Translations under genes and position numbers: made by a program
Notes under the pieces: generated by a model
What the model saw: only the letters and a program-made list of their open reading frames with translations
What the model was told of the DNA's origin: nothing
Databases searched by the model: none
Shown: piece after piece, positions 8,214-63,930 of the stretch
Layout: every line of letters begins with the position of its first letter
Position numbering within the stretch: position 1 is the stretch's first letter
Source of the DNA: Azolla caroliniana
Lineage: Eukaryota; Plantae; Polypodiophyta
Direction of reading: 5' to 3'
DNA: 64,000 nt
NCBI GenBank assembly: GCA_043228905.1
Contig: JBHGNT010000006.1
Coordinates: 15,314,001-15,378,000 of the forward strand

Positions 8214-8285
8214 AATAGCATGGCTTAATGGTAAGCCAATTGATTCCTAACTTGGAGGTGCAAGGTTCGAATCCTTCCTTGCCCT
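8214..8285 (+). ncRNA. tRNA-like (Pol III A/B box) cassette in the 3' LTR of C, antisense to the element
   Basis: A-box TGGCTTAATGG 8221-8231; anticodon-loop-like TTCCTAA; B-box GGTTCGAATCC 8264-8274 in a paired T-stem (AAGG/CCTT). The acceptor stem does not pair. Confidence 0.7.
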
Positions 8286-8845
8286 CCTTGTATATGTATA
8301 TATATTTATATATTTATTTATCTAGTTGCCGGACGCCGGTTCGGTTTTGGTTGGCCAAAACCCTTTACAAGTAGCTAGCCCACCTCCACTCTTAGTTCAA
8401 GTTACCTTGAACTCTCTATGCTCCACACATAGACACAAAGATAATATCTTTTGCTCCACCTTATATATGATGAGAGTTGTATTTGTCATGCCTATGTGGG
8501 ATATCTCACAATTTTCTCTTTTCCTTTCACAAACTTTATACCCTCATATCTTGATATTTAGTTGTCCGTTTCTCGTGTAATAAAGTGCATTCGAAACCTC
8601 CATCATTTTGTACTTAGATATTAAATTTATTTAAAATGTTATCTTCACAATTATTGTACTATGTGATTCATACTCGATTTCGTACGTTTTATGGGATTTT
8701 CACACTATTGCCGAAAATCTTCACGACATCCACCCCCACCAAACCGCACGTCCTCCGGTACGTGCCAAGGAGAGAGAAAGTGAGATTTCGGCTACGATGA
8801 TCAATTAGATTCCTCCATGTCTTCATTTTCATCCGCCCTGTTATG

Positions 8846-11800
8846 TTAATCGTCGAGGTAATCGAGGTCAGGATCCTTGTCTTGTCTTTTCTTGAAAATC
8901 TTTACTCTTTTTCCCGCAATGGGTACTGCTAACCTTGATCCGTCTAATTCTGCAAGGTGGTATGTGGCATTATCGTTGGCACTTGTCACCACATACGGCT
9001 CGAACCATCTTCTTGCGAACTTCCTTGTTGTACTGTGTTGATTGTCAAGAGTGTTGTCGTAAACCAAAACCCAATCCCCTTCTTCAATCTTCTTGGGACG
9101 AAGTCGATGCGTGTTGTCGAACCGAACCTTGTTCTTTACTCGGGCTGCCTTCATCATCTTTCGCGCTTTTTCTAAATCTTCAGGTCTTCTTTCAAGTTGC
9201 CTTATCCGCGCCGCTAATAACTCTTCTCGGCTCATTTCGTTCTCCCACGGTATCGCTACCCATGAGGCGATCATCCTTTCAATGGGCATAATCGGCTTTT
9301 GTCCATACATAAGCTCCGTCGGCATATACCCTGTCACCGAGCTATGTGTCGTTCTATTGGCCCACAAGGCATAGGGTAATAGTCGTGGCCAATTCCCGAC
9401 TCGACCGTTGCATGCCCGTACGATGGCTTTAACGATAGGTCCATGCCCTCGCTCGATCTTCCCATTTGCTTCCGGATTGTAGGCAATCGTGAGGGAGAGC
9501 TTCACTCCTAGTCTTTCGAAGAGCTCTGTCGCTTCGTGCGTGTCCAACTCCCCTCGGTCGGCCACTATCTTCCCTACACATCCATATCGGCAAACAACAT
9601 CTTCAAGTAGAAATTTGCAAACGGCTGAAGTCGTCTTATTTGTCAAGGCTCGTCCTTCCACTTGATTTGTCAAGTCTTCCCTTGCCAGCGCTAAGTACTT
9701 CATTTGTCCCACTCCCATTGGCATTGAGACCAGATCCACCATCCATTTGAAGTGTATGGTGAGTGGGTATGTCGGCTTTAACTCATCACGATGACGTATA
9801 TTTGAATATACTTGGCAAGTTTCGCATGTGGACACGAAATGGAGTACATCTTTGTACATGCTTGGCCACCAGTACTTCTCCTTCAACTTTTCGAACGTTG
9901 CCCATGTTCCTCTATGACCTGCCCAAGCACTCTCGTGGAATTCGGTCATCAGCGTCTCTTGCTCTTCTTTCTTTACCACCACTCGACGTGGTATTCCTGT
10001 CCTTCTTTTTGGATGTCGCCAAAGGAATCCTCCCTTCAAGAAGTATCGGTAAGCTTTCTTTCAGATTCGTAGGGCCTCCTCCTTTGTCAACGAAGCATCT
10101 GTCGCCAATGTTCTTAGGAATCTACCGATGAGTAACCACTCTCCTTCGTACTCATTCTCGTTGAAGGCGTGGAGGGTTTGCGTGTCCTGGTCTTCCACCA
10201 ACAATTGAGCCATCTTGAAGAAGTCGAGGGCGACATCTTCATCTTCCGAAACCATGTTACTTCCATTTGAAAATCTTGCCCTCGACAGCATGTCAGCCAT
10301 GGCGTTCTTCTTCCCTGCAATGTGACGGATCTCTGGGTTTAAAGACTTGATGTAGGCGATCCACCTTAGCATAGCAAGATCTGGGGTCGCACATCCCGAG
10401 ACCATTCCGAGAATTGGGAGACAATCTGTCTCTATTATCACTTCCGACCCGATCAGGTAATATTTGTCCGTCTTCACTGCTGACACAATACCCCAAAGTT
10501 ATTGCTTGACTTGGGCATATCTTTGTTGCCGTTCGCTGAGAACCTTTGCTCCGAACCGGACGGCATATCGCGCATTATCTTCACCTTCTTCATTGATGAC
10601 CCACCCGATTCCGGCTGGGCTCGTATCTACGGTCACGTAAATTGGTTTCCCTTCGGCATAGTCGGCCTTCCTTAGTGCCGGAGCTTCAAGAAGCAGTTTC
10701 TTTAATCTTTGCATCGCCTTTGTGTGCTCGTCTCGCCATTCGAACTTTATTCTTTTCTTTAGTAGTCCATATAATGGTTCGGCGACATGAGCATAGTGAG
10801 GAATCCATATATGATAAAACGTGCATGCTCCAAGGAACCTTCGAACCTCCGTTTGGTTTTCGCATTCTTCTTTCATGTCTTGGATTGCGTTCACTTTGGA
10901 TGGCGAGGGCTTCCGGCCGTATGCTCCACACAAGTGACCTACCACCAAGATCTCCGGTTGCCCGAATGCGGATTTTTCTCCCGAAAATGTCAAATTCGCA
11001 TCTTTGAGCCTTTGAAGCACCTTTTCGCAAGCTTTCATATGATCCACAATGAACTTTCTACAACCTTCCTTATCTTTCGATTCATCTTTCTCCTCATCCG
11101 AACATCATCCAACAATGGCATCGTGATGTCCGGAATGCAATCCTTCAAGACTTTATTCATGGCATTCACCATATGAGCCACCGAGTTCGTTGCGCCTTGG
11201 GGTAAGGTACACATCCGCACAAGCCCGATCGGAGTCCTCATGGTTGTAATGTCCCGACTGTCGATCGCCAATTGGAATTGGTCATATCCGGAGTAGAGAT
11301 CGCCAATGGAGTAGATGGACCGGCCCGCAAACGCTTCGGCAAATTCGTCCACGCTCGGACCGATTCCAGCATTTCGAATTGTCACCTTCTTGACGGGTTG
11401 AAGATCTTGGATGAATCGCAATGATCCATTCTTCTTCGGCACCGTGAACCACCTATTGGAATAAGGAGCAATCGACGGTTCTAGAATTCCCATACTCACC
11501 TTCTCCTTTAAGAGCTCGATCAGCTTTGGAAGGTGTGCTCTCGGAACCGGTATCGGTTTCAAGTTCCAAGGCACATGAGGCACCGTGAAGATCACCATCG
11601 GCTCTATAACCTTTGGGTCGGCACATCCGATTTCTCGTGGGAAGAATGCGAAAGCCTTCCCATGTCTCTCAAGCATATCGCGAAACATTCGGTCCTCTTC
11701 AAGGAGAAGGAAATCCTCCTTTCCAACTCGTAGCTTCCCCTTCGTCTCTTTGGTGAAGACATGACCTATCTTCTTCTGATCTCTTAAGCTTGGATCGTTA

Positions 11801-12269
11801 GCGACTTCCTTCATCTTTTGCCAGCTATCTTCCGGTAGCGGAACCGCAACTGGCTTGATCTTCTTATCCACCGTTTTATATGTCATGTTGATGTCAGCTT
11901 CCTTCATCAAGATGCCACGACGCTATTCATCGATAATAGCGTACATGTTGACGGAGTTAACCGAAATCACGCGTTGGTTGTGAAGATAGCTCAAGTCCAC
12001 GACGTCCTCGATTTCGCCAATGGTGTCGTTAAATGAGGCTTCTTCCATAATATGAGTCACGAACTCTCCTTCTTCTATTATGTTCTCTTCTTTCAGCATC
12101 TTCTCGAATTCTTGTATCAGGCGCTTGTGCTTCTTGTTGGGTAGTACTAGTTTACATGCGCCACTAGGTGTGACACATGTTGCTTCTCCTTGCAATCCAC
12201 GCACTCTTCTTTCTTGTGGGGTCTTGTGATTGCTCGGACTATTCGTGCCCCATGCTTCAATAGTCCGCT
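8846..12269 (-). pseudogene. pol: C pol (RT, RNase H, integrase), few disruptions
   Basis: RFIQDLQPV, DLYSGYDQF, LPQGATNS, LLDDV (RT); VTVDTSP (RH); H-GH..CETC zinc finger, WMVDL, IVADRGE, ANGKIERGH (IN). Confidence 0.92.
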
Positions 12270-12279
12270 CTAAAAATCC
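12217..12279 (-). promoter_or_regulatory. Putative -1 programmed ribosomal frameshift signal (G GAU UUU plus stem-loop/pseudoknot) between PR and RT of C
   Basis: Heptamer 12279-12273 directly before the gag-PR stop; 5-nt spacer; perfect 9-bp stem cggactatt/aatagtccg; loop tgggg complementary to downstream cccca; the -1 frame is open and leads into the pol frame. Confidence 0.75.
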
Positions 12280-14508: not shown

Positions 14509-14526
14509 TTCACGTCGGGTTCACCA
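14509..14526 (-). promoter_or_regulatory. Primer-binding site of C, complementary to the tRNA-Trp 3' end
   Basis: Plus strand ttcacgtcgggttcacca matches the 3' end of plant cytosolic tRNA-Trp (recalled, not searched); 8 nt from the LTR. Confidence 0.8.
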
Positions 14527-14982
14527 CTTAATTATGTCGTGAAGATCCGTCACTACACGCGGATCGTGAGGCGGAACCGCCGGGGTTCTGGACCGGAAGG
14601 ATTCAAAGTCGGTACAAGCTTTGGCGAGAAAGTACTTAAGATAGATTGGGAAAGAGAGAAGTTGAGATTAAACGATTGAGACAGATTGATTGAACTTTTA
14701 ACTTTAGATTTAAGAAACAAGTTACATGATCAATTTGATAACAAATTTCTTCCCCTTAATTTTCATAAAAAATACCGTGTTTTTTCTCCTCCCCCTTCTT
14801 TCTTTTATAGATGCTCTCATGCATATGATGCATGTGAGGGTACAAGACATGCATAAATTGCATGTTTGCCATTTGGCGCTTATGTATTACATGTGGTGCA
14901 TGATAACCATATCACTCATTTTAGCTCTCATGTATGAGAATTTACATGTAAAAGTACAATGATAGAAATATAATTTCAACTA

Positions 14983-15054
14983 AATAGCATGGTTTAATGG
15001 TAAGCCAATTGATTCCTAACTTGGAGGTGCAAGGTTCGAATCCTTCCTTGCCCT
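14983..15054 (+). ncRNA. tRNA-like cassette in the 5' LTR of C
   Basis: Copy of 8214-8285: TGGTTTAATGG 14990-15000, GGTTCGAATCC 15033-15043. Confidence 0.7.
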
Positions 15055-15526
15055 CCTTGTATATGTATATATATTTATATATTTATTTATCTAGTTGCCG
15101 GTTCGTCGGATGCCGTCAGTTACCGGTGCGTCGTCGGATCACCGGCTCCATCGCCGGTCCAGTTTTGGTTAGCCAAAACCCTTTACGAGTAGCTAGCCCA
15201 CCTCCACTCTTAGTTCAAGTTACCTTGAACTCTCTACGCTCCACACATAGACACAAACTTATATATGATGAGAGCCGTATTTGTCGTGCCTATGTGGGAT
15301 ATCTCACAATTTTCTCTTTTCCTTTCACAAACTTTATACCCTCATATCTTGATATTTGGTTGTCCATTTCTCGTGTAATAAAGTGCATTCGAAACCTCCA
15401 TCATTTTGTACTTAGATATTAAATTTATTTAAAATGTTATCTTCACAATTATTGTACTATGTGATTCATACTCGATTTCGTACGTTTTATGGGATTTTCA
15501 CACTATTGCCGAAAATCTTCACGACA

Positions 15527-18817: not shown

Positions 18818-18865
18818 TGTCATGATAACAGTCACATCATGCATCGAAAGGATCATGACACTCAC

Positions 18866-18935
18866 ATTATGACTTGAAAGGATTTGAACCCACGACCTTG
18901 TTGTACACATGTCAAATCCTTAACCATTGTATTAA
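18866..18935 (-). ncRNA. tRNA-like cassette in the D LTR U3, antisense (second copy ~21982-22051)
   Basis: Minus strand TAATACAATGGTTAAGGATTTGACATGTGTACAACAAGGTCGTGGGTTCAAATCC, with tRNA-like A-to-B spacing and a typical AAGGTC variable region. Confidence 0.62.
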
Positions 18936-18979
18936 TATTCTTATATGTATAGTCTCTAGAATATGAAATCTAATATCAT

Positions 18980-19140
18980 AGGAATATTCTATATTACTCT
19001 ACATTCTAGAATGACCTAGAATATTCTAGAGTGTTCTATACCACTAGAACCTTCTAGAATACTCTAGAGATCTTCTAGATTACTCTACATTCTAGGATAA
19101 CCTAGAATATTCTAGAGAGTTCTCTATTACTTATAAATAG
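18980..19140 (+). promoter_or_regulatory. Heat-shock-element array plus TATA box in the D LTR (copy ~22096-22256)
   Basis: CTAGAATATTCTAG at 19016-19029 and 19102-19115; CTAGAACCTTCTAGAA from 19044; TATAAA 19132-19137. Confidence 0.75.
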
Positions 19141-19193
19141 GGATCTACCACCCATCCCAAACCTAAATTGGTTCAAAGAATGGGACTCTTCGG

Positions 19194-21941
19194 TTGGTCG
19201 TGGATTATCGAGGGCTAAACAAAGTGACTATCCGAAATAGATATGCTCTACCATTAATCCCGAATCTTTTGGAACGTCTCAGTGGTGCAAAATATTTCAC
19301 GAAGTTGGACCTTCGCGGAGCATATAATCTAGTTCGGATTCGCCCGGGGGATGAATGGAAGACAACTTTCCGCACTCGCTATGGACATTTTGAGTATACA
19401 GTGATGCCATTTGGTCTCACGAATGCACCTGCTGTTTTCCAACATATGGCGAACGATATTTTTCGAGATTTTCTTGATATCTTCACTATAGTTTACCTAG
19501 ATGATATTTTAATCTACTCAAAGACCCAAGAGGAGCATGATGCACATGTTCGTCAAGTACTATGCCGACTCCGAGAATATGGTCTCTACGCAAAATTAGA
19601 AAAGTGTAGTTTCGGCCAGAATCAAGTGGAATTTTTGGGGTATGTTGTATCGTCAAATGGTATTGCTATGAACCCCATGAAGGTACAGGCAATTTTAGAA
19701 TGGCAAACGCCCCTTTCAGTGCGTGATGTGCAATGTTTTCTCGGGTTTGCAAATTTTTATCGAAAATTTATTAAAGATTATTCCAAGGTTGTGATTCTGC
19801 TTACTCAGCTCACACATAAAGATCAACCATTTATATGGAGTTCAGATGCATCCGAGGCATTCGAAAGCTTAAAACGAGCATTTACAACGGCACCTATCTT
19901 AGCACATGTCGACCCAACAAAACGCTTCATCCTCGAAGCCGATGCATCCGATTTTGCACTAGGGAGTGTCCTCTCGCAGACTGGAGATGATGGACAACTA
20001 CACCCTGTCGCCTTTCATTCACGAAAGTTTGAAGCTGCAGAGATCAACTACGAGATCCATGACAAAGAGCTTCTTGCAATCGTGGATTCGTTTCAACAAT
20101 GGCGACATTTCCTAGAAGGTTCTTCTCAGCAGATCATTGTCTACAATGATCATAAGAACCTGACTTATTTCCAAAATGCTCGAGTCTTGAGTCGGCGACA
20201 AGCCCGGTGGGCGCAATTTTTGACTCACTTCGACTTTATCATCATATATCGCCCTGGGATGCAGCAAGGCAAAGCAGATGCTCTTTCTCGGCGCTCTTAT
20301 ATGGAACTTCGTCCAGGGGAACCTGCTTTTGAGCATCAAAAACAAATCCTTTTGGGTCCTAATCGATTACGATTAATGGTAGTTAACGCCATAACAGCTC
20401 TTGAAAATTCCACTCTTCTTGATTCCATTCGAGATCATATGGCCACTGATGATTTCGCCAAGGATGTTTTGGATCATATCGTCCCGGATCGTGCTTCTTG
20501 CTCACAGTCGAAAAATCCTCGTAATGACTATTGTCAGTTCTATTGGCATGATGGTTTTCTATTTCGACAAAATTTATTGTATGTTCCTGATGGTCCCCCA
20601 CGGCTACAAGTTTTGCAACATTGCCATGACTCACCAATGGCTGGTCATTTTGGAGTTCACAAGACTCTAGAATTAATTTCTCGACGCTATTGGTGGCCTC
20701 GCCTTCGTCATTTTGTTGAGGAGTATGTTCGGAGTTGTGATATATGTTGTCGATCAAAGAATCCTCGTCACCGACCCTATGGCTTACTACAACCACTTCC
20801 CGTTCCGGAAACACCTTGGAAGTCTATATCCTTGGACTTCATTACTGATCTCCCAGTTTCAAAAGGTTTTGATGCAATTCTCACAGTGGTTGATCGATTT
20901 ACCAAAATGGCACATTTCTTGCCATGTACAAAGTCGATTACTAGTCAAGAGACGGCTGATCTCGTTATGCGGGAGGTATTTAAGCATCATGGTCTGCCAG
21001 ATGATATTATTAGTGATCGTGGTCCACAATTCATCTCAAAGTTTTGGAAGCACCTGTTCAAACTTCTCCACATTTCAGTTAAGCTTTCTTCGGGCTATCA
21101 TCCTGAAACAAATGGCCAAACAGAGCGTACCAACCAGACATTGGAACAATATCTTCGTTGTTTCATCAACTATCAACAAGATGATTGGGTTGCATTTTTG
21201 CACTTGGCGGAATTCGCTTACAACAACTCAGCCCATTCTTCTACAGGATATTCCCCATTTTTCGCAAATACGGGCTGTCATCCTCGATGGACGATGAATG
21301 CGCATCCAGAAGTTCCTACCAACCCTGCTGCCGAGGATCGTCTTAGTCGCCTCCAAGAAATTCAAGCTAACATTCTCCACAATTTGCACGATGCTCAATT
21401 TACACACAAGAGGCTTGCCGATCGTCATCGTCTAGACTTCTCAAAAAAGTTCCGCATTGGGGATCATGTATGGCTTCTCCAACACAACATCAAGACCACT
21501 CGACCTTGTAGTAAATTGGATTACCAACGTTTTGGCCCTTACATGATCACTGGTAAGATAAGTGATGTTGCATTTCGTCTTGACCTTCCTCCGCACATGC
21601 ATCTTCATCCGGTGTTTCATGTATCCCTTTTGGAACCTTATACTACAAGTTCAATTCCGGGCCGTCTTACGACACCCCCACCACCTGTCGAGTTCTTGGA
21701 CGGGCCTGAATTTGAAGTTGCTGCCGTTCTCGATTCTAAAATCGTGCGCAACAAGTTGTATTACTTGGTCGATTGGCTAGGCTATACCCCCAATGATCGA
21801 ACTTGGGAACCTGCCACAAATCTTTCCAATGCTGCAAAACTCGTCAATGCATTTCATCGCCAATATCCTTGTAAACCAGGTCCTAATACAAACCCTACGA
21901 CCCGTGAGACGTGTCGTCGAAGAAGGGGGATAGTGTCATGA
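19194..21941 (+). CDS. pol: D pol: uninterrupted RT-RNase H-integrase-chromodomain (915 aa, N-terminally truncated)
   Basis: VVDYRGLN, MPFGLTNAP, YLDDILIYS, EADASD, SISLDFI, GPY, EFEVAAVLDSK..YLVDWLGY..RTWEP. The ORF runs through the PPT into the LTR. Confidence 0.95.
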   Translation: MVVDYRGLNKVTIRNRYALPLIPNLLERLSGAKYFTKLDLRGAYNLVRIRPGDEWKTTFRTRYGHFEYTVMPFGLTNAPAVFQHMANDIFRDFLDIFTIVYLDDILIYSKTQEEHDAHVRQVLCRLREYGLYAKLEKCSFGQNQVEFLGYVVSSNGIAMNPMKVQAILEWQTPLSVRDVQCFLGFANFYRKFIKDYSKVVILLTQLTHKDQPFIWSSDASEAFESLKRAFTTAPILAHVDPTKRFILEADASDFALGSVLSQTGDDGQLHPVAFHSRKFEAAEINYEIHDKELLAIVDSFQQWRHFLEGSSQQIIVYNDHKNLTYFQNARVLSRRQARWAQFLTHFDFIIIYRPGMQQGKADALSRRSYMELRPGEPAFEHQKQILLGPNRLRLMVVNAITALENSTLLDSIRDHMATDDFAKDVLDHIVPDRASCSQSKNPRNDYCQFYWHDGFLFRQNLLYVPDGPPRLQVLQHCHDSPMAGHFGVHKTLELISRRYWWPRLRHFVEEYVRSCDICCRSKNPRHRPYGLLQPLPVPETPWKSISLDFITDLPVSKGFDAILTVVDRFTKMAHFLPCTKSITSQETADLVMREVFKHHGLPDDIISDRGPQFISKFWKHLFKLLHISVKLSSGYHPETNGQTERTNQTLEQYLRCFINYQQDDWVAFLHLAEFAYNNSAHSSTGYSPFFANTGCHPRWTMNAHPEVPTNPAAEDRLSRLQEIQANILHNLHDAQFTHKRLADRHRLDFSKKFRIGDHVWLLQHNIKTTRPCSKLDYQRFGPYMITGKISDVAFRLDLPPHMHLHPVFHVSLLEPYTTSSIPGRLTTPPPPVEFLDGPEFEVAAVLDSKIVRNKLYYLVDWLGYTPNDRTWEPATNLSNAAKLVNAFHRQYPCKPGPNTNPTTRETCRRRRGIVS

Positions 21942-23701: not shown

Positions 23702-23768
23702 CATATAGTCTAATGGTCAAGAGCTCGACCCATGTAACATAAGGTCATGGGTTCGATTCTTGCCATAT
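23702..23768 (+). ncRNA. tRNA-like cassette at the start of the E LTR U3, antisense
   Basis: TAGTCTAATGG 23706-23716 ... AAGGTCATGGGTTCGATTCT, B-box 23750-23760. Confidence 0.65.
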
Positions 23769-51548: not shown

Positions 51549-54500
51549 ATGACTAGACCAACGCACGACTTGGTTACAGACCGAGCTCGACGCCTCGCCG
51601 AACGGCAAAGACGGCGTGAGACTTTCCAGCAAGCAGCGCAGGAAATTCGCTCGGATCGTTCGTTCTCCAACGAGATCCGGAGAGTCGCGGAGGAATCTCT
51701 CCGGTTACGGCAAACTCGCGACCAGGACGACGGAAGCAGTCTAAGTAGTCTCCGGGAAACCGAACGACTCCTGGAGGCGCTGGCAAGCGGAGAAAACGAG
51801 GCAGAAGCCTTTTCAGCCTACGAATCGGATTCCGAAGGGGGATACAGCGTGCACACGAACTACCGGAGCAGCAACGATACCCCCGGCGGCCCGGAAGACG
51901 ACGGGTCGGATACCGTGCCGACTCCAGAACCGGAACCGCTCAACCAGGGCTATCCGGAACCGCAAACGGAAGCCGTCAACCCACCAACACCGGAAGTGGA
52001 AGAAGCAAAGCCACCAACACCAACGAAAGAGCCGGCAAAGGTACCGGAAGAAGAGCCGGTGAAGGAACCGGAAAAAGAACCGGAAAAAGCACCGGAAGTG
52101 GAACCGGAGAGAAAACCGGAAAGATATCAACGAACGCCACTAAACCGCGGCCTAAGACTGGACGACGACATGCCGTTCCAATACTCAAAGTATCGCGATG
52201 ATCCGGACGCGGAAGCGCATGTTCATGACTTCGAGCAGACATGGGAAGCAAATCACACGTCCCAGCGAATGACACCGGAGGAAGAAGAACGCTCGAAGAT
52301 AGCGGAATTCGGAGTCACGTTGGAGGGACCAGCGACACGATGGCGGCGGACGCAGGACCCGACGACCATCACAACCTTTGCAGAATTAAAAGCAAAATTC
52401 TTGCATTTTTTCCACAAGGAGGTCGACCAGACGACAATGGTGGGCCTGTTTTATACGATCCGACAGGAGGCAGGGGAAAGCATTCCCCAATTCGTCATCC
52501 GTTTCCAACAAATGCATAGCCAGCTTGCCCGTGCACCCCCGGAGGAGGAATTACGGACGATATTTTTAAACGCACTCCGGGAACCATTACGCACGGTGTG
52601 TACGGTGATCGACTTTCGAGGATGCACCATCGACCAGGTCATTGACCGGGTCAGAGAAATGGAAAAGACAAGCTCATGGCTTACGCTGGGAACACTGCAA
52701 CGGGCATTACCCACCGAGGAAGATCTCCGGTTCCGGCAGGCAATTCAATGCACAATCTGCTTGAATGCCGGACACTCGGCAGTAGAGTGCACCATGCGCA
52801 CTCAGTGTGTGATTTGTCAATCCAAGAGTCATACAATGGACCGGTGCGAGTACAACCTGTTAAATCGACAAGCACCACCCGTCCGATGGATCGAGCCAAG
52901 AAGCAGCCGAGACGAAGATGACGATCGTTGGCAAAGAATGAATCGGTACCCACCGGCACAGGATGTCCGGTACGGAGACAGGCAAGAGAATGATGGCCGG
53001 TACGGGAATCGGCGTGATAACTACGACCGGTATGAGCGATCGGACCGTTATCGGGAGCCCAACAGACGACACGAGCAATACGACAGAGACCATTCCCCGG
53101 GTTACCGAAGGCACCAGGAGGACTACGGCCGATTTTACGATCTACCACGACCGGACTACCGAAATAAAAATAAGAATAATAAGAAACGTAATTTCAAGAA
53201 AGGTGGTCACACTAGGGACCTGGAACAGGGAACCCCAAGGAGCCAACCGGCACAGAACGCACCACTCACTACGGGACCGACTCCGGCCACCAGCAATGCT
53301 GAATCCAGCAATACCCGTAAAGAGTACTGCTACTACTGCAGGCAAGAAGGCCACTACAGTAACCAGTGCCCGGTAAAGAGCTACGAGAAACGACCAGCAG
53401 TTAATATGGTGGTTCCGGAAGTGGCGGATTTACAGCAAGTAACCACACGGTCGAAAGGCATGGCCAAAGAATGGGAAACACAAGAGGCCATACGAAAACA
53501 GGCGACGGAATGGGTGAAGGAAGCCAATGAAAGGAACGTCGCGGACGCGGAACGGCAAAAGGCGAATACCATAGGGAGTGCCGGCGGTAGCCACCCAGAA
53601 AACGAGACATGGCAAACACTACAAGAATGTCAGATCACGTTACCATTAGGAAGACTCTTGCAGCTCGTGCCGCGATTCACAGAAGGACTAAAAACGGTCA
53701 TGACAGACGGTATAGCCCCACCGGCACCAGTCCTCTTCTCGAATCCGGAGGAGGGACCGAAGGTGGTGGACACTAGTAGTCCGGCGATTACTGCTATTGT
53801 CAAAGGGCACGAACTTCCCGGCACCGTAATCGATGGAGGTTCCGGGGTGAACGTAATAAGCCTCCGTACGTGTGATGCCTTGGGTATACATGAATGGGAG
53901 CCATGCCCGTTCTGGCTACGGATGGCGGATACGAGCTCGGTACGGCCGACGGGCTTAATACGGAAATTGGAAGTCACCATAGGAGGTCACACATTTCACA
54001 TCTCGGCTGTAGTGCTGCAGCTACAGGCGCAAGGCGCGTACCCTCTGTTGCTGGGCAGACCATGGTTGAAAACAGCACACATCAAGCAAAATTGGCGAAA
54101 AAATATGATTACCTTCCGGCGCGGAAAAGCCAAGGTCCGGGTACCGACACAACCACGGACGAGCAACGGTAAGGAATGCACACCGCTGTATGCGGAATGT
54201 GTGAACATGCTTGAAGGATTGGCAGACGACGAAGAAGCCCAGTACTTGGAGGAACACCCGAAGATCGTACCACTCTTCGAGATTGACGTAGCTGAAGCCG
54301 TAGCCCCATACTTGCCGCAGCGGGACGACACCGAAGCCGAACCAGACAAAGATGCGATTCGGGAATTACGGCAAGCACAGGAAGCGTTGGAACGGGAAAT
54401 GGCCGTTTCCCAACGGGTAAAAGCATCCCAGCTCGACGAAATGAACCTAGGAAGCAAGGACGAATCAAAGCCGGTACACATCGCCAAAGAAATGAAGCCG

Positions 54501-57395
54501 GAAGATAAAGCGGCGATGATCAAACTTCTCACGGAGTTTCGCGACGTATTCGCCTGGTTATACGAAGACATGCGAGGGCTGGACCCTCAATTATATCAGC
54601 ATCAGATCCACTTAGGCAAGGACGCGAAACCAGTGGCGCAAAGACGATACCGAATGAACCCCAACTACGCCGCCAAAGTGAAGGAGGAAATCGACAAACT
54701 CCTAAGAGTGGGCTTCATCCGGCCGGTAAAGAAAGCGACGTGGCTGAGCCCCATCGTCGTCATCCCAAAGAAGAACGGTAAAATCCGTGTGTGTGTAGAT
54801 TACAGGAAACTAAATGCCGCCACAATTACGGATGCATTCCCTCTTCCGTTCACGGATGGAGTACTGGATGCCGTCGCCGGCCATGAAGTTTATAGCTTTT
54901 TAGACGGCTTCAGCGGATACAATCAAATCCGGATGCACCCCGACGACTAGTAGAAGACAGCGTTCGTCACCGAATGGGGGGTGTTTGTGGCCGAAGTCAT
55001 GATGTTCGGCCTAAAAACGGCACCAGCAACGTTCCAGCGAATCATCATGGAGATCTTCGGCGAATACATTCCTGCTTTCATGCAAGTTTTCCTGGATGAT
55101 TTTGCAGTCTATAGCCGGGGAAAAGACCATTTGCAGCACCTACGGTTATGCCTTGAAAAGTGTAGGTTATACCGGCTAAGCTTAAACCCAGCAAAATGCA
55201 TCTTTGGGGTTTCAAGTGGAATATTGCTGGGACACATTGTAAGTAAGGAGGGCATTGCGGTCGACCCGGACAAAGTAAACGCCATACTAGGGGCACCGGC
55301 GCCGAAAACGGCCAAAGCACTAAGCTGATTCTTAGGACAGATCCGGTGGCACAGCCGGATGCTCCGTCACTTGGCTGACTTGGCTACACCATTACACACA
55401 GCGGTACATCGGACACCGTTCCAATGGACGGATACGGAGGATAAGGCATACAATGCCCTGAAGGTACTTTTATCGCAAGCACCCGTCGTGCAGCCTCCGG
55501 ATTGGAGCAAGGAATTTCATGTGTTCGTGGACGCTTCCGACATCGCTATTGGCAGCGCCTTAATGCAACTTACGGAGCCTAAATGGTACCGGCCGGTATA
55601 TTACGCCAGCTGGAAGCTGTCCCAAGCGGAAAAGAACTATTCGACGACGGAACGGGAGGCCCTGGGCATGATCTACAGTGTCACAAAGTTTCGGCATTAC
55701 CTATTGGGAAGGAAGTTCTCCTTTCATGTGGATCACTCGGCGCTCCTGTACTTAGTGTCCAAGGCGTCCTTGACCGGTAAGTTGGCCCGTTGGACCTTGC
55801 TGTTGCAGGAGTTCGAATTCGAGATCTTCCACCGGCCCGGTATCCAGCATGCCGTAGCAGACTACCTGAGCCGGTTAGAGTCCGGAGAAGCAGGCGACGG
55901 AGTACCGGATGAATTCCCAGACGCAGAGTTATTCCGTATCACCCCGGAAACGGCAGCGGACGACACGGTGGCATCGGAAGATAGGTGGCTGACAAACATG
56001 CACCAGTTCCTAAGCACGGGCCTGCCACCAGAGGAAATGAACCGGGACGAGAGGAAACGACTGGCGGTGCAGAGCCGCAATTTCTGCCTGTTACGGGACA
56101 CTCTCTACCACAAGGGAGCAGATGGAATATGGAGACGGGCAGTCCGTAGTGACGAGATAGAAGTAATCTTACGGGAAGCACACTGTGGGGTTGCCGGAGG
56201 ACATTACGCCGGGGAAGCGACGGCAAGGAAAGTATGGCAGAGCGGCTTATGGTGGCCCACGACGTTAAAAGACGCCGTCAAGTATGCTAAGGAATGTGAC
56301 CTATGCCAACGAATGGGCCAGCCTACGGAGCAAGCACGGATGCCACACCAACCGGTACTTCCACTAGAGCCATTCCAGAAGTGGGGGTTGGATTTTGTCG
56401 AACCGTTCAAGCCACCGGCAATGAGAACGGGTAACCGTTATGTCATCGTGGCAACGGATTATTGCACTAAATGGGTGGAGGCTAAGGCCTTGAGAGACAA
56501 TACCGCGTCATCCACAGCAAAATTCCTGTACGAAAACATTTGGTGCCGATATGGATGTCCGATTGAATTAATCAGCGACCAAGGAGGGCACTTCCTCAGC
56601 CAGGTAGTGGAAAGCTTAACAACGTTCTATGCCGTGGTTCATAAACGGAGCACACCGTACTACCCACAAGCGAACGGGTTAGCAGAGTCCACCAACAAAA
56701 CGCTGCAGAACATTCTCCGCAAAATTGTCAATGAAAACCGGACGGACTGGGACACAAAGCTCCATAGCGCGCTATGGGCGTATAGAACGGCATACAAAAC
56801 AAGTATCCGGACAACGCCGTTCCGGTTAGCATTCGGCTTAGAAGCGGTCATGCCGGTGGAATTTCAGGTACCAAGCTTACGGATCCAACTACGGGAACGG
56901 CTGAATGAAAAGAAGTCGGAGGAAATGCGGCTAGCAGCACTATGCGAACTGGAGGAGCAACGGCTGGCCAGCATCCTACACCTGGAACTGGAGCAACGAC
57001 GACGGAAAGCGTTCGTTGACCGTCACCGGAAAGGTAATGAAAAGATGTTCGAAATCGGAAAGCCGGTTCTAGTATTCCAAACAAGGATGGGCAAGATGCC
57101 GGGTAAACTCCGGTTCAGATGGACAGGCCCGTATTGGCTGACACGGGAATACAACGGGTCCTATCAGATAGGGACACTTGCCGGTGAAGTACTAGGCAAG
57201 TGGGTGAACGGATTTCGACTAAAGCCCTATAAAGGACCGATGCCAAAGAACCCGTTTATGCAGCTCACCGGCACTATACCGGGAACGGTACGGATGGAAG
57301 AAAAAGACGACGGGGAACCAGTGGCAGAGGCGAAGGAAGACACGGCAACCCGTAAGGAAAACGGTAAGGGTCCGAAGGGACCTATGGATGTGTAA
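51549..57395 (+). CDS. pol: J single-frame gag-pol with two premature stops (54948 TAG, 55326 TGA)
   Basis: ORFs 51549-54950, 54981-55328 and 55359-57395 share one frame; three CCHC knuckles; VIDGGSGVN; FLDGFSGYNQI, FLDDF; VFVDASD; EPFQKWGLDF; FRWTGPY. Confidence 0.93.
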
Positions 57396-57408
57396 GATCA
57401 CATACCGT

Positions 57409-57409
<1 letters not shown>

Positions 57410-57440
<31 letters not shown>
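57410..57440 (+). repeat. Poly(A)31 tract between pol and the extra ORF
   Basis: Run of 31 A. Confidence 0.95.
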
Positions 57441-57442
<2 letters not shown>

Positions 57443-57586
57443 GAGGTATGAACGGGTGTAAAAGCAAGGCGCGAAAAGGTACGTAGTGGGCATTTAAGAG
57501 CCGCCACGTACTTAATACTAAATCGGTACACGACGTGCGCATGCTCGAAAAAAGGCGCCAAGACGCACAGAGAAAAAGAAGAGCGC

Positions 57587-60457
57587 ATGGAGACCTTCTT
57601 TTTTCGCGAGCCAAGAAGCACAGAAGCACCAAGGCAGTGGAAGCTGAGCAAACGCGAACCTGCACACAGAGAACCCCTGCGCTCAGAACGCTCTCTCTCT
57701 CGCTCTCACTCTCATCACCACTCTACTTCGCCATCTTCCCTCGACCTTGAAGCAGACATGGAACCACAAACGCTGTCGGAAGCGGCCAGGAAATGGTTCA
57801 GGCAACACGGACTGGAGGGGTTCTTGGCCATCATGGAGGCACCGCCGCACAGAGAAGCCGACCGGGTCATCAAGGAGCTCGCCACAGAGGTCATCACCGA
57901 GGAAGCGATCCGCGCACTAACAGGCCTTCCGGAGGGAGGAATCTTTCAGATCGATAACCCAACCTCGGAGCAACTCATCCGATATTTCGGTGAGTACTCT
58001 GTTGCCGGCAAAGGCTATCGGATGCAGGGCGGCGAAGATCCGCTATTCAGGGAGATAGCTCAAGTGCTCCATGAGTACGGTCACGTGTACCCCCGACCCC
58101 CTGTCATGCCAAAAAATCGGGCAGGGATGATCATAGCCACCTATGAAGGGATCAAGGTGGACTGGCCGGTGTTGATTGCAGACGGTTTGTGCACGGCAAT
58201 CGACATGGTACGAGGAAAGGACGGCAAGGAGGGCCGGAAGCTGTGGCACGCCGTAGCTCAATGGATAACATTGCTCGTGCCGCCGGTCGAGACCGTCCAG
58301 CCAAAGAAGCGGCCAAGAGTATCGGAAGGAAGCACCTCGAAGCCGGCGTCCAAACGACAACAGCTGCTGGCGTCGAAGGCGACGAAAGGGAAGAAACGGG
58401 TCCCAGAACCGGAGGAGGTGTCACCGGTTCGACCCGTCAAGATAACCATACGGAGACCGGGACAGAAGGAACCGGAACCCTTGACGGCACAGAAACATGT
58501 CGTGACACAGGAAGAGGAAACGGAGGATCCAGAAGAGCACCTCCAACGACGGTCAAGAAGTAGGACCGCCGAGACAGGAGGGGAGCGGTCGTACCCGCGA
58601 GAGGCAGAAACGCCCCCAACTCAACCTGAGCAAACCACAAGGGAGGAACCGGAACCGGTGCGTAGGGAACCGGTCTTGTCGACTTCTATAGAAGAAGTCA
58701 TTCCAACGGCTCCGGAGACGGCGAGAACCGGAACTCAACAGCCGGCGAGCCCAGCCAGAACACACGGCGGCCAAGGAGTAGAACCAGAACGGCATATGCA
58801 GGCACTCAGGCCAGACAATTCCACAGTGAATGAGCCGACCCGACCAGTACAGCAACAAGGCACCAGTAGCATGTGGCTACGGTGGGTTGGCGAGCAAATC
58901 GCTGGAGTGGTCGAGTACATAGAGGCGGAGGAGAGAGCGCACCAGGAACGGTTGCTCGTCACAACCGTAGATCTAGAGACGGCCCGGTCCAGAATCCGGA
59001 GCCTTGAACAAGACTTGGACAGGGTCACAAGGGAAATGGCTCAAGTGGCTTTGACAACACAAGTCCAAGCACCGGTGACTCCGGGCAATGTACAGAATAA
59101 AGCGGCAGATCAACCTGTACATAGCAATCAGACCCCGGCAACGGAAACCGTTCCGGAGAGAAATGCGGCACAAGCCCAAGAGCTTGCGGATTTAAAGGAT
59201 GAGCTAGCTGCCCAAGAAGCGCTGAGGAGCCGCGAAAGAGAATTGAAGACGGCAGCGGAGGCAGAACTCAAAAAGACTGCTGAGAATCTACGCCGGGCCG
59301 AGGAGAGCTTACGGAAAGGCCACCAAGCATACAACCGGCTCAAGGAGGAGAAGGAGAAAATGCTGCAAGAGAAGGAGAGGCTCCGGAGGAACGCCGAAAC
59401 AGAAGTAGAGCGCCTGAAAGAGGAACTCCGGCAGGTAAAGGACCAGGAGGACCGGAACCATCGCCAGATCAACGGCAAGCTCAAACAAAAAACGAAGGAA
59501 TTGGAGCAATTACACCGGGAGTATAAACGGTTGCAAACGGAGCACAAGGAACGGACGGATGAGCTCCGGCAAGCAGTTGATCGGACCGCAACCGCATTCG
59601 CCAAGGAACAAGCGGAAAACAGAAGACGGTTGGAAGAGGCGGAGAAGGTTCGGACAGAGCTCCTCAGGCAACAGCAGGTGGAAAAAGAAAGAGCGGCGGA
59701 GGTACTGCAGAGGCTGCAAACGACATATCAAGGGCAGCTGACGCGCTACAAAGAGCAGGCGGAGGATACGGCAAATCTCATCAAGCAGTTGAAGGAGGAG
59801 CGACAAGTGGTGGAAAGCAGAGCACAAATGGGAGCAAGTCGCATCCAGGATATCATGCGGGCCTGGTTGAACCAGACCAAGAGCTTGATTGACAACGGTT
59901 CCGTCAAATGGTGGACCAAGTGGGCCACGAACGCGGCGGAACTCCAATTGCTCCGGCCCGACGTAGAGAACCGGCGGAAGGAGGGAGATGATTGCTATAT
60001 GCTGAATTCTGAAGATTTCACCGGCATAAGAGATGAGCTGGCCGAAGACTTTCAAGCCTTGGCAGAGGACCAACTAGAGCAAGTCCGGCAACTTGTAGCT
60101 CAGCTGGACGACGACAGGCTGGAGGCGCAGATCCAGTTTGAAAGCTACGAGAGGTCCCGGATCCGGGGAGAGAAAGAACGAGAACCAGTTACGGTCAACC
60201 TCAGTGATGAGGAACCGTTACTGGAAGGAGACCGGACCGGAAGCAATCAAACGGAGATGCCGGAGCCAGAGAGACAAACGGAGCAGCCGGAGTCAGCGAA
60301 ACAAACGGAGCAGCAGCAGCAAGCAGAGCAGCCGGAGCAGCCTCAGTCCCAACCGCAACCACAGCAGCAGCAGCAAGCACAGCCGCAGCAACCACAACCG
60401 GAAGAACAAGTGGAAATTCTTGAACAAAGTATTTTGGACAATTTGGGTGAACAATGA
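57587..60457 (+). CDS. J extra 3' ORF (up to 956 aa; likely start 57758): small globular N-domain, disordered linker, long coiled coil, Q/P-rich tail
   Basis: Uninterrupted 2.87-kb ORF between pol and the 3' LTR; ITEEAIRALTGLP and KVDWPVLI motifs; ~350 aa E/K/R/Q heptad-rich region. Confidence 0.88.
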   Translation: METFFFREPRSTEAPRQWKLSKREPAHREPLRSERSLSRSHSHHHSTSPSSLDLEADMEPQTLSEAARKWFRQHGLEGFLAIMEAPPHREADRVIKELATEVITEEAIRALTGLPEGGIFQIDNPTSEQLIRYFGEYSVAGKGYRMQGGEDPLFREIAQVLHEYGHVYPRPPVMPKNRAGMIIATYEGIKVDWPVLIADGLCTAIDMVRGKDGKEGRKLWHAVAQWITLLVPPVETVQPKKRPRVSEGSTSKPASKRQQLLASKATKGKKRVPEPEEVSPVRPVKITIRRPGQKEPEPLTAQKHVVTQEEETEDPEEHLQRRSRSRTAETGGERSYPREAETPPTQPEQTTREEPEPVRREPVLSTSIEEVIPTAPETARTGTQQPASPARTHGGQGVEPERHMQALRPDNSTVNEPTRPVQQQGTSSMWLRWVGEQIAGVVEYIEAEERAHQERLLVTTVDLETARSRIRSLEQDLDRVTREMAQVALTTQVQAPVTPGNVQNKAADQPVHSNQTPATETVPERNAAQAQELADLKDELAAQEALRSRERELKTAAEAELKKTAENLRRAEESLRKGHQAYNRLKEEKEKMLQEKERLRRNAETEVERLKEELRQVKDQEDRNHRQINGKLKQKTKELEQLHREYKRLQTEHKERTDELRQAVDRTATAFAKEQAENRRRLEEAEKVRTELLRQQQVEKERAAEVLQRLQTTYQGQLTRYKEQAEDTANLIKQLKEERQVVESRAQMGASRIQDIMRAWLNQTKSLIDNGSVKWWTKWATNAAELQLLRPDVENRRKEGDDCYMLNSEDFTGIRDELAEDFQALAEDQLEQVRQLVAQLDDDRLEAQIQFESYERSRIRGEKEREPVTVNLSDEEPLLEGDRTGSNQTEMPEPERQTEQPESAKQTEQQQQAEQPEQPQSQPQPQQQQQAQPQQPQPEEQVEILEQSILDNLGEQ

Positions 60458-62787
60458 AGGGGCCGAGAAGGGTTCGACGTACAAGGTACTGTCCCACGGG
60501 CGTGCCATGTGTTACCGGCCGGCAAGGAGTCCAAATTACGGAGTGAAGGAATTAATTAGATATGGTTGTAAATGAGCATAGTGTGGACAGACGGACTGGA
60601 AACGGTATGCCGTTCCAGATCCGGACGGATCCCGAATAGGTGCGAGAGGCACCGTTTTGTACTACGGGCCGGAAACCTATTTAAAGGCCCGGACCCCATT
60701 GTAATGACAGCGGATAATTAATAGAGCTTATGATGTTTATACTTTTGTCTTGATTTCCGTTCTGTAATTACTGTTATATCTTACGCGTGCAATTAACCAA
60801 AGCATTCTAATCGTGTAACTTACGTAAGTCGTTGTAATCGTTGAATCTTAATCCTATGCCGTAATCACCCTTTGGTGAAGTGTCTCCGTGACACCTTGTG
60901 TTAGGCCTTGTCCGGCTAGCAAATAACAGAAACGAGTGGATTTCGACGAGATCTTCGCCCCAGTAGTCAAGATGACATCCATCCGGACTATGTTTAGCAT
61001 TGCGGCAAGCATGGACCTCAAGGTAGAGCAACTAGAAGTCAAGACAATGTTTCAGCAACCTCGAAGAAGAGATCTACATGCAACAACCGGAGGGATTTAT
61101 TAAGAAAGGGAGCACCTGTTGTGCTAGTTGAAGAAGAACTTGTACGGATTGAAGCAAGATCCTCAGCAATGGCACCAGAAGTTTGACTCCTTCATGACCG
61201 ATCAAGGACACCACAAGACGTAGACCGACCACTGCGTGTCCGTGAATAAATTTGATGGAGGGAACTTTTGGATACTCCTACTGTATGTGGATGACATTCT
61301 GATCGTCGGACCGGACTAGATCAAATTCTGAAATCTGAAGAAGGCTTTGAATCGGACCTTCTCAATGAAAGATTTGGGCCTGACGAGACAAATATTGGGG
61401 ATGCACATAGTGTAGCACTGGATGAAGAAGCCTTTGTGGTTGTAATAGGAGAAGTATGTGATGAAGGTGCTCCAACGATTCAACATGTCGTATGCTAAGT
61501 CGATCGGGTTGACACTTCCGGCCAACTGCAAGTTGTCCGCGAAGCAGAGCCCGAAGACAAAGGTAGAGAAGTCGGAGATGATGAAGATACCATATGCCTC
61601 TGACGTCGGAAGCTTGATGTACGCAATGGTGTGTACACAGCCGGATATCGGATATGAAGTTGGAGTTGGAGTGGTCAACTGGACACTAGATCGCGGTAAA
61701 GTGGATACTCTGGTACTTGAAAGGCACCTCAAGTATGTGCCTCCGATTTAATTCAAGTAAACCCCAACTTGAAGGATTCATGGATTTGGATATGTCGTCT
61801 AATGCAGATACTAGCTGGTCTACATTCGGACACGTCATGACATGTGCAGGGGGAGCCATATTGTGGCAGTCGAGGTTGCAGAAGTTCGTTGCACTGTCGA
61901 CAATGGAACGGAGTATATGGCGTCATGGAAGCCGACAAAGAAGTAATCTGGATGAAGGACTTCATCGAGAGCTCGGGATCCAGCAGGAGGAATTCCGGCT
62001 CTACTGTGACAATCAAAGTGTTATCCACCTAGCGAAGAACGTAGCCTACCAGTCCCGGATAAAGCACATCCAGAGGAGATATCACTAGCTCTGGGAGAAG
62101 GTAGAAGATAAAGAGTTCTGGCTAATGAAGATCCATACAGAAGAGAACGGGTCAGACATGCTAACCAAGGTGTTGTCAGCCAACAAGGTAGATGTGTGCC
62201 AGAGACGGATCAGAATGACGGGATATCCCATGCGAGAGTGAAGGGGAATTGGTTGGGAAACAGTTCCCTCCAGATGGGACCCGGATGAGCCGAAGGAACC
62301 AGGCCGAATGGGTCCAGAAGGTACCCGGATATCGGATCGGATGGATCCGGAAGGAGTCCAACTAGATCCGGTATGAACCAGCAAGTAGGAACATATTTGT
62401 GAATATGTTTAGACGTGACCCTCGAGGTCATATTTGTAAATAGACCATAAGTTATATGAGTATATAAATATAACTAGTGCAAATAGTGTTTTATAGAGGT
62501 TTTATTATTATTAATGTTGTTCAGAGAGAGTGAGAGAGTGAGAGTGAAACAGAAAGTATTTTTTGTTGTAACCGCCAGTTGGCGAGGACATACAACTCAA
62601 GGTCATTGCCTCCTAGTCTTCTGTTGTATTCTCCCTCTTATAGTGGTAGTTGGAGTCTGTGGGCTCCCTTGGTTTTTCCCGTTTAGGGTTTTCCAAGTTA
62701 ATATCCTGTGTCGTCTCATTTTCTATTTTTTTGCTTTCTTCCTTTGAGTGATTTAGACTCAGTTGTGGCCGAGCACTATTCTGAACA

Positions 62788-62990
62788 AAACCATGGGGGT
62801 GACAAATGATTGTCTTTCCCTGATCTCTATATCACTTTTTTTATGGCGGCTCCCCGAGGCTCAACCATGTATGTTCATGTCATGAATAGTCTAGACACGA
62901 AAAAATGTTAACAATAAACTATGTCTTTGTGCCCACCCATATGGTTTCGGCTCTTTAAATCTTATTACGAGGACCCCAAAGTGCACTTAG
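62788..62990 (-). mobile_element. Fragment homologous to the 5' leader of B
   Basis: The reverse complement catggttgagcctcggggagccgccat...atagagatc..gaaagaca...ccatggtttt matches ~3415-3500. Confidence 0.7.
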
Positions 62991-63500
62991 ACCTAAAGTC
63001 TAAACATGTTTTATAGTCATATATATCAATAATGTTGTATGGTCATGATAATATTTGAACTCGAAACCTCGAGAACAAATACATTAAACACTTGAGCTAA
63101 CAAAATTGGAGCAAAGTTTATTCGTATGAGAGATATATGAAGGCATTTGCCTATATATGTTTTTTAAAAGAAAACATATGTGTCTAGAAACCTTATTTCC
63201 CCCTCGTTAACTAGACAACTATGTTGGTAACGTTACCCAACCTCAAGTCTCATAATTACGATGGCATATGCCAATGTGCAACCTAATGGTCAAGTCACAC
63301 TAGCCCTCTTTTTCGTAGTAGGCCTATGTGGCCCATCACATGGTTACGTCATTACGAATGCCTATCGTAATGATGATCTCATGTGGCATCATCATCATGT
63401 AATGAGTGAGGAATGTTGGATGTATGTGTCATATGATTGACACCCACATGAAGTGGTTCAAGCCCTTATGCTCACAACGCACAACATCATTGTGGCAATG

Positions 63501-63762
63501 TGTAAAAGATATTGTGCAGAAGCTAAAACGAAACCGGAGGGTCCGGTTAGTAGTAGAACACAGAACGGAGATTTTAATAGAAAGCTTGAATACACAGGAG
63601 AGACACAGAGAGAGCAGAACAATATAAACTCAATTTCAAAATAATAACACTTTGTACATATGAATGTGTTACAGAACACTTTTTATACAAGTCCTTAAAA
63701 GGACTGACATGTACTTCAATGCTCATGCGAGCGACTAACAGTAACTCCAAGGACTATGACTA
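63501..63762 (-). repeat. Partial LTR of the F/G/I Copia family
   Basis: ttttatacaagtcc...gactgac..gtacttcaatgctca is the reverse complement of the I/F LTR core; left end tgtaaaag. Confidence 0.8.
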
Positions 63763-63861
63763 TGTTGTCGTCATGTATTTCGTTCACTACGTGAAAAACG
63801 TATAAAGTACCTGATTCAATAAATATAAAGAAAAAGTAGGAAATATAATAATATGTATTAC

Positions 63862-63930
63862 ATGCATAGGACAAGATTTGAACCTTGTACCTCCATGTTA
63901 ATAATTTAAAGCTTTACCATTACACTAACA
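63862..63930 (-). ncRNA. tRNA-like cassette near the start of a probable new LTR (~63763 onward)
   Basis: Minus strand TAGTGTAATGGTAAAGC...ACATGGAGGTACAAGGTTCAAATCTTG; similar to the C cassette. Confidence 0.6.

Follow-up and report, generated by a model that had tools for sequence, protein, structure and literature searches.

The stretch analysed here (the window) comprises 64,000 nucleotides (nt) of the genome of Azolla caroliniana (Polypodiophyta; assembly GCA_043228905.1, contig JBHGNT010000006.1, positions 15,314,001 to 15,378,000) and is a nest of Copia and Gypsy retrotransposons. Three of the Gypsy elements, referred to as C, D, and E, carry in their long terminal repeats (LTRs) a short unit that resembles the internal RNA polymerase III (Pol III) promoter of a tRNA gene. 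Eight such units had been proposed in a preliminary description of the window, and six of them are genuine, namely those in both LTRs of C, in both LTRs of D, in the LTR of E, and at 63864-63934 (Table 1). All six contain an A box, the spacing of a tRNA gene (35 or 36 nt from G19 to T54, in tRNA numbering), AGGT at positions 44-47, and a complete B box (G53 T T C R A N N C61), and all six lie in the U3 of their own LTR and are antisense to it. The units of C, D, and E are located upstream of the TATA box, as had been claimed; in the 3′ LTR of C, the unit lies 455 nt in from the 5′ edge of the LTR, and its T8 is 181 nt upstream of the TATA box. The idea that the units travel with their LTRs was likewise borne out. 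The sixth unit, first described as a further copy at 63862-63930, proved to be a true unit but not a free-standing one, since it lies inside a C-like LTR that starts at 63766.

The units were scored with a two-box matrix comprised of an A half (17 columns) and an AGGT/B half (18 columns) at a spacing of 35-37 nt. The matrix was trained on 16 LTRs from metagenomes and included no sequence of the window. The units in C, D, and E score 25.1-48.7 bits, compared with a maximum of 19.1 bits over 100 local shuffles of the window, a control that was run while one training row (L031u) was mis-anchored. Among the remaining LTR sequences of the window, 17 copies or fragments were scored (15 from Copia elements and from elements B and G, and two solo LTRs), and all stay below 10 bits. 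No tRNA was called by ARAGORN or Rfam (whole window at an E-value of 5; 301 nt at 10).

Table 1. Positions of the tRNA-like units and of the host LTRs and other parts of elements C, D, and E in the window
Feature	Position	Strand	Remarks
tRNA-like unit, 3′ LTR of C	8214-8285	+	antisense (C on minus); 25.8 bits; from alignment
A box of this unit	8221-8232		
AGGT of this unit	8256-8259		
B box of this unit	8264-8274		
tRNA-like unit, 5′ LTR of C	14983-15054	+	antisense; 25.1 bits
tRNA-like unit, 5′ LTR of D	18870-18941	-	antisense (D on plus); 46.1 bits; B box to LTR edge 62 nt
tRNA-like unit, 3′ LTR of D	21986-22057	-	antisense; 46.1 bits
tRNA-like unit, LTR of E	23699-23770	+	antisense (E on minus); 48.7 bits; B box to LTR edge 15 nt
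C-type tRNA-like unit in C-like LTR	63864-63934	-	antisense; 30.2 bits; 39/53 letters match C
3′ LTR of C	7766-8728	-	TG..CA ends; polypurine tract 8729-8740
TATA box of C 3′ LTR (predicted Pol II promoter)	8034-8040	-	from sequence
5′ LTR of C	14535-15526	-	
tRNA-type primer site of C	14509-14526		
5′ LTR of D, U3 and start of R only	18818-19176	+	TATA 19132-19138; truncated at 19176
D pol frame (RT-RNase H-integrase-chromodomain)	19167-21941	+	924 amino acids, open; gag and protease deleted
3′ LTR of D	21934-22404	+	TATA 22248-22254; self-primer motif 22281-22293
3′ LTR of chromovirus fragment E	23409-23775	-	TATA 23585-23591; 3′ end abuts Copia A LTR
5′ part of C-like LTR	63766-64000	+	ends at window edge; start resembles C LTR by eye; multicopy
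Solo LTR with AGGT/B halves	31307-32160	- (orientation inferred)	flanks TTGTG/TCGTG; whole-unit score 9.3 bits
Weak tRNA-like match, unsupported as same cassette	63045-63101	-	15.1 bits at 30-nt spacing
Pol II, RNA polymerase II; U3 and R, unique 3′ and repeated regions of the LTR; RT, reverse transcriptase

The two remaining proposals were supported in part or not at all. In the copy suggested at 31590-31660, an AGGT/B half is present (31604-31621, 22.9 bits, with 0/100 shuffles reaching 20), but an A box at tRNA spacing was not found. This half and a weaker one about 150 nt away, at 31453-31470 (14.4 bits), lie in the solo LTR 31307-32160, probably in the sense orientation and downstream of its TATA box, and probably represent a different, sense capture, possibly a third kind of tRNA capture. 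The halves stand in tandem, probably in the unique 5′ region (U5), and the LTR has a short end motif common to C-like LTRs. The match at 63045-63101 is at chance level: the whole match has 0.5 equivalents per shuffled window, and its B half (14.7 bits) is matched 0.7 times in each. It sits in a multicopy stretch whose LTR status could not be shown. B-box-like matches at 43236 and 63456 (<11 bits) were discarded.

The elements that host the units appear to be of two kinds. C is 7.8 kb long and has no chromodomain and no extra open reading frame (ORF); its coding part spans the interior, it has a tRNA primer site, and its two LTRs are identical at 918/943 aligned letters. These features indicate a non-chromovirus Gypsy element, for which "Phygy-like" is used as a working label, and the named relatives of its integrase are proteins of the liverwort Riccia (49-72% identity). 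The primer, which we take to be tRNA-Trp, has its site separated from the LTR end by 8 nt (by 4 nt in a relative, L003), where the usual gap is only a few bases. D and E, on the other hand, have a chromodomain (PF00385) at the C-terminus of integrase (E-values 4.8e-13 in D and 1.1e-13 in E), with the aromatic residues F/Y, W, and Y at what is presumably the aromatic cage. The two LTRs of D are identical at 358/359 positions. D itself (18818-22404, flanked by AAACC/AAACA) is without U5, primer site, gag, and protease, and RT follows directly on its 5′ LTR, the junction falling at the self-primer motif. In E, a 505-nt tandem duplication (99.8%) of the integrase end and chromodomain at 23852-24864 is either recent or an assembly artefact.

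The distribution of the unit was followed with a metagenome scan using D pol, in which the best 80 of 560 relatives, at 69 loci, were covered. In a quick-search integrase tree of 56 rows, D and 24 loci form one branch with a Shimodaira-Hasegawa-like approximate likelihood ratio (SH-aLRT) of 100, and the sister clade has 56-59% integrase identity. Loci with less than 200 amino acids of integrase were omitted from this tree, including L024 and L029, whose LTRs were assigned to the D clade by RT identity and LTR motifs. E was placed in the clade by its LTR, which is 91% identical to that of L035 across the unit. The whole unit is present in 23/25 readable D-clade LTRs (23 loci), from contigs named in a single series, which are largely collapsed repeats and include near-copies (L014/L023, L033/L036/L042, and L008/L009), giving an independent sample of about 11-16 families. 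It is antisense in 23/23, its B box is 10-62 nt from the LTR edge, and leave-one-out scores are 30-48 bits in 16/16 training rows. Sister-clade LTRs have the unit in 0/4 (scores at most 6.1 bits; one LTR is only 108 nt long), and from L039 on no locus outside the D clade scores above 8.4 bits. Full-score matches in the 69 loci all lie in D-clade LTRs, except for a tRNA-Pro-like gene in L037, and ARAGORN called none of the units a tRNA in 34 loci. The simplest reading is that the unit was gained once, at the base of the D clade. The preliminary description had assigned the units to several distinct Gypsy families; judged from these relationships, there seem to be two carrier lineages, the D clade and the C lineage, with D and E belonging to one clade and pointing to one gain rather than several. 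Scans of viral contigs with D pol and C integrase gave no matches.

The carriers of the D clade have the build of autonomous elements, with long and open pol frames (1044-1235 amino acids) and gag frames, a TATA box, and a self-priming site. The site of D itself is deleted, and self-priming was read from its relatives: R and the primer site are complementary in 10/12 loci listed, in three covarying types. D and E thereby seem to fit the self-priming, Tcn1-like clade of chromoviruses. In D-clade LTRs (L005-L043), the part of U3 between the unit and the TATA box is a slot occupied by repeats of no fewer than three kinds, unrelated to one another (arrays of TCTAGAA, arrays of GCATG, and another kind in L024), and the LTR may be described as modular with fixed ends. 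Sequence flanking fragments of the clade contains, in L037 (2370-3001), decaying tRNA-Pro-like copies arranged in tandem with a period of about 140 nt and, in L010 (128-201), a gene for tRNA-Asp accompanied by part of a second copy.

The promoter boxes of the unit were compared with neutral sites. Among 11 families (55 pairs), identity is 73% in integrase, 39% at four-fold degenerate third positions, 38% in the middle of the unit, and 89% at 19 box positions, and box identity exceeds four-fold-site identity in 55/55 pairs. Since the rows were anchored on the B box and their spacing was picked by the A box, the columns concerned are inflated; columns outside the anchoring reach 96-97% (44-47) and 75-77% (T8/9), compared with 37-40% in both flanks. 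G18, G19, A44, G46, T47, G53, T55, and A58 are invariant in 16/16 families, positions 15 and 57 show almost only purine-to-purine changes, 59 is free, and 60 is a pyrimidine. In the promoter consensus of tRNA genes, 15, 57, 59, and 60 are the positions allowed to vary. The spacing is 35 nt in 5 families and 36 nt in 11. The tRNA structure has fared differently: no stem covariation was detected, within-unit pairing equalling between-unit pairing in all four stems (a test without a valid positive control), and a terminator of four T residues (T4) occurs inside the LTR in 7/16 families and in neither D nor E. Thus, the earlier observation that the boxes are kept while the stems are not was upheld. 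Since the stems, the anticodon, and the terminator of the tRNA are not conserved, selection acts on the promoter DNA, retaining its letters and spacing and not an RNA, and the unit is probably a selected element of the type bound by transcription factor TFIIIC.

Such conservation bears on two other explanations. The units could be neutral relics of an old tRNA-derived short interspersed element (SINE) that inserted in an LTR and was copied along with it, and an origin via SINE insertion has been proposed for the Helenus and Cassandra elements, both of them miniature retrotransposons with terminal repeats (TRIMs) (PMC10886601). In the D clade, however, boxes at 89% identity against 38-39% at neutral sites, together with a B-box CpG that is intact in 11/16 families, refute a neutral relic. 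The unit may well have originated as a SINE; it is only neutrality that these data reject, and firmly for D and E alone. It could also be that the conserved letters bind a different factor of the host, by which the Pol II promoter is activated, the tRNA shape being merely their origin. AGGT at 44-47 is indeed better retained than the textbook boxes, and the 5′ half of the A box is worn. This explanation is nonetheless very unlikely, as the three motifs keep tRNA spacing, the free and fixed positions track the pattern of tRNA genes, and the C48 needed for a W-box core is present in 9/16 families only.

In the C lineage, the evidence is weaker. Relatives with DNA are few, the metagenome scan having been made with D pol, and comprise L003, L070, L071, and two LTRs of the window; the unit is absent from L003, the solo LTR 42067-43393, L070, and L071. 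The LTR from 63766 and that of C share one significant local match, which consists of the unit and its A+T tail, and the unit is 110-160 nt inside the 5′ end of the former. The properties of this C-type unit are those on which a SINE relic could draw: it has an A+T simple-repeat tail, it is patchy, and in Logan contigs the sequence upstream of it is of several differing kinds that break off at T8. In two runs, 17 contigs apiece begin their match exactly at T8 of the C unit. In addition, depth over 63862-63898 is about 7 times that of the preceding bin, with loose ends at T8, although depth is not copy number. On the other side, Logan depth (again, not copy number) is not raised over the C unit relative to its LTR flanks, and among 40/59 variants listed the only box variant in the C unit is an allowed A/G at position 15. 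The pattern fits a unit that has outlasted its flanks across related LTR families and also dispersed copies. Position, orientation, and box conservation had been put forward to separate the units from SINE passengers; that separation survives throughout the clade of D and E, whereas for C it is undercut by patchiness, with four related LTR types lacking the unit. The C-type unit in some Phygy-like LTRs is therefore probably best regarded as a second case with weaker support. Even among D-clade families the middle of the unit has reached saturation, so that the convergent co-option first suggested is not separable from derivation of both kinds of unit from one SINE or from exchange between families. 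L070 and L071, which come from contigs of a cyanobacterial bin, are C-like plant retrotransposons (61-63% integrase identity) and likely bin contamination. Another supposed relative of C, L072, was a spurious match of 18 residues. The solo LTR 42067-43393 contains tandem repeats of about 110 nt in its U5 (42153-42596).

How the unit might act is constrained by its orientation: being antisense, it cannot serve for the production of genomic RNA. The main rival to a role of the unit in chromatin is a regulatory antisense RNA: Pol III transcription from a functional unit in the 3′ LTR would run on into the polypurine tract and the chromodomain frame and limit or tune the expression of the element, with no barrier involved. 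The boxes, the fixed spacing, and the upstream A+T tract are what a transcribing tRNA-type promoter requires, and Pol III microRNA genes with A and B boxes have been described in foamy-virus LTRs (PMC3993851). Against this, no product is conserved: the middle of the unit is at chance identity, stems are missing, T4 is confined to the minority of families given above, and the LTRs of L029 and L030 stop 10 nt past the B box. An antisense RNA thus seems unlikely, though worth considering.

A role at the RNA level was also considered, in which the genomic RNA, complementary to tRNA loops, would pair with a host tRNA for strand transfer. The antisense position in U3 resembles the case of HIV-1, for which such pairing has been reported and where a tRNA-Lys3-like sequence is reported in U3-R (PMC6468702). 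However, the D clade self-primes, with compensatory changes between R and primer site, which leaves no primer tRNA to bridge; G-to-A changes, which G:U pairing would tolerate, occur in 0/16 families at 18, 19, 46, and 53; and positions 59-72 of the C unit mismatch the primer site of C itself. Pairing with tRNA is accordingly the least probable of the explanations weighed here.

The reading proposed for the D clade is that the boxes bind host TFIIIC/TFIIIB and thereby form a portable chromatin barrier between a silent flank and the Pol II promoter, a tentative reading that we consider plausible without regarding it as the expected outcome. Briefly, the family comparisons show that the ancestor of the D clade acquired a tRNA-derived head in U3 that its sister clade lacks. 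The 3′ half of the A box, AGGT, and the B box then remained at tRNA spacing while the middle, stems, terminator, and remaining U3 were replaced. From here on the steps are inferred: TFIIIC on the boxes might set TFIIIB on the A+T tract at the promoter side of the A box (76-92% A+T, compared with 48-71% in the rest of U3; 14 LTRs), and T8 is 113-209 nt upstream of the TATA box in the same number of LTRs. The complex would point outward, such that any Pol III run would exit the 5′ LTR and not cross its promoter, and it would keep the heterochromatin of the insertion site off the element. Chromodomains with aromatic residues are known to target heterochromatin, and the chromodomain integrase of these elements is expected to direct insertion there. 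A barrier would be of use at the place that the unit occupies in the D clade, facing outward at the very edge of U3, with host chromatin on one side and the Pol II promoter on the other. Yeast TFIIIC sites are known to have barrier and insulator activity, which is stronger when TFIIIB is also present (PMC3395662).

Alternatively, the unit could serve as a landing pad, with an integrase that targets TFIIIB as those of Tj1 and Ty3 do, such that the LTR would draw new insertions into old copies and away from genes. Tj1, a self-priming relative of Tf1, inserts at most 12 bp upstream of tRNA genes (PMC4600332). A tRNA-like unit was nevertheless present in 0/9 scorable flanks of D-clade LTR ends (best 5.3 bits; a tenth flank was too short), no insertion just upstream of the unit was seen by eye in the window or in the D-clade LTRs viewed, and D, C, and E are located in coding DNA or LTRs of other elements. 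A landing pad is therefore improbable. Nor do the tRNA genes of L010 and L037 adjoin LTR ends, and they were discounted as evidence of targeting.

Several observations count against an outward-facing barrier. Within the D clade, L016 has a duplicated B half in rearranged form and without an A box, and L019 is without the unit in the 67 nt of LTR covered; the sample, moreover, comes from one contig-name series, consists largely of collapsed repeats, and includes the near-copies named above. G10 of the A box is retained in 4/16 families only, the 3′ half and the spacing being kept; the B box is complete, C56 and C61 included, in 10/16. The unit is lacking from the sister clade and from the majority of the LTRs of Gypsy and Copia elements in the window. 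In the C lineage, the unit is found in 2/6 related LTR types (C and that from 63766), and at 455 nt inside its LTR the C unit is off the edge. It was also reported that tRNA genes (tDNAs) block Pol II in yeast (PMC4228148), and a TFIIIC complex in the 3′ LTR would obstruct Pol II as it synthesizes the genomic RNA. Examples of plant TFIIIC barriers were absent from the literature searched. With these points in mind, the broader proposition, that autonomous plant retrotransposons have more than once made a tRNA-gene promoter into a portable outward TFIIIC/TFIIIB barrier at the LTR edge that keeps the promoter of a heterochromatin-seeking chromovirus open in silent chromatin, is possible but less likely than not.

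The closest known systems are the Helenus TRIMs (TRIMp3), whose LTRs contain tRNA-derived sequence with conserved A and B boxes but no working tRNA, likely of SINE origin (Kojima 2024, PMC10886601). Helenus occurs in fungi, animals, and one lycophyte and comprises non-autonomous elements of 311-1263 bp, and its unit was proposed to make genomic RNA, while autonomous partners were argued to need Pol II promoters (PMC10886601). The units described here are similar in that tRNA-derived A and B boxes are present in both LTRs. They differ in their carriers, which are full gag-pol elements with a TATA box and a self-primer instead of miniature non-coding ones, and in their antisense position at the U3 edge, from which genomic RNA cannot be made; the Helenus unit is sense in the three LTR sequences inspected. 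In Cassandra TRIMs, which are plant elements of vascular plants, each of the two LTRs likewise retains a Pol III promoter stemming from a small-RNA gene, although theirs is a type 1 promoter of 5S rRNA genes in a non-autonomous element that transcribes itself and keeps its terminator (PMC10886601, PMC12786077).

As in the extra TFIIIC (ETC) sites and tDNA barriers of yeast, B-box DNA is conserved without a conserved RNA; the yeast sites have TFIIIC-dependent barrier and insulator activity (PMC3395662, PMC4228148), for which the present unit is a candidate. ETC sites are fixed host loci with an extended B box, whereas here the carrier is mobile and the unit has an A-box half and tRNA spacing (PMC3395662). 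Foamy-virus LTRs also have A/B-box Pol III units in the U3 of an autonomous reverse-transcribing element, yet those units make hairpin RNAs with terminators, and here hairpin, product, and terminator are not conserved (PMC3993851). The HIV-1 sequence is similar as a tRNA-related stretch in the U3 of an autonomous element; it is reported to act by pairing with the primer tRNA, whereas the D clade has no tRNA primer and keeps promoter positions rather than the sequence of one tRNA (PMC6468702).

With regard to the hosts, self-priming Tcn1 chromoviruses have been reported among plants only from mosses and clubmosses (PMC6317226). Judged from the elements alone, this and the liverwort relatives of the C integrase would suggest a bryophyte host, probably a moss, and the D clade is likely one of mosses. 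D and E resemble them in their chromodomain with aromatic residues, self-priming, and fungal-type relatives, and the available parts of the Tcn1 descriptions mention no tRNA-like LTR unit, which the sister clade in this study also lacks (PMC6317226, PMC2864245). The preliminary description knew of no account of such units in autonomous plant Gypsy LTRs. This stands for the literature searched, outside which lay most subscription papers and Repbase, as far as an antisense, clade-wide, selected tRNA-type promoter is concerned; tRNA-derived LTR promoters as such were already published for Helenus. The same study, which was confined to TRIMs, mentions that tRNA-like parts are found in "not a few LTRs" of Repbase (PMC10886601), and REXdb tables and Repbase entries may hold the present LTRs already.

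The capture of Pol III promoters in LTRs is hereby extended from non-autonomous TRIMs, where the promoter makes the genome RNA, to apparently autonomous elements whose unit is oriented such that this is excluded. The unit bears on how chromoviruses stay active after insertion into heterochromatin, and a 55-nt element that selection maintains at the LTR edge in families with saturated silent sites offers a precise target. If the barrier were true, the unit would be a cis-acting anti-silencing device taken from the Pol III machinery and natural evidence of tDNA-type insulation in plants; if it insulates, it would also be a compact candidate insulator for plant transgenes.

Some other features of the window were also recorded. 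Element G (51079-60928) has no purine tract before its 3′ LTR; at this place (60460-60509), a stretch resembling a tRNA 3′ end and ending in CCA was seen by eye. G also contains an extra ORF of 1001 amino acids (57452-60457) without a Pfam match. The leader of element B contains tandem repeats of 83 nt (2429-2677). In addition, two broken, intron-bearing gene fragments were recognized by eye at 44250-45850 and 46330-47160, the first presumably from a gene for a hAT-like transposase and the second from that for the beta subunit of ATP synthase.

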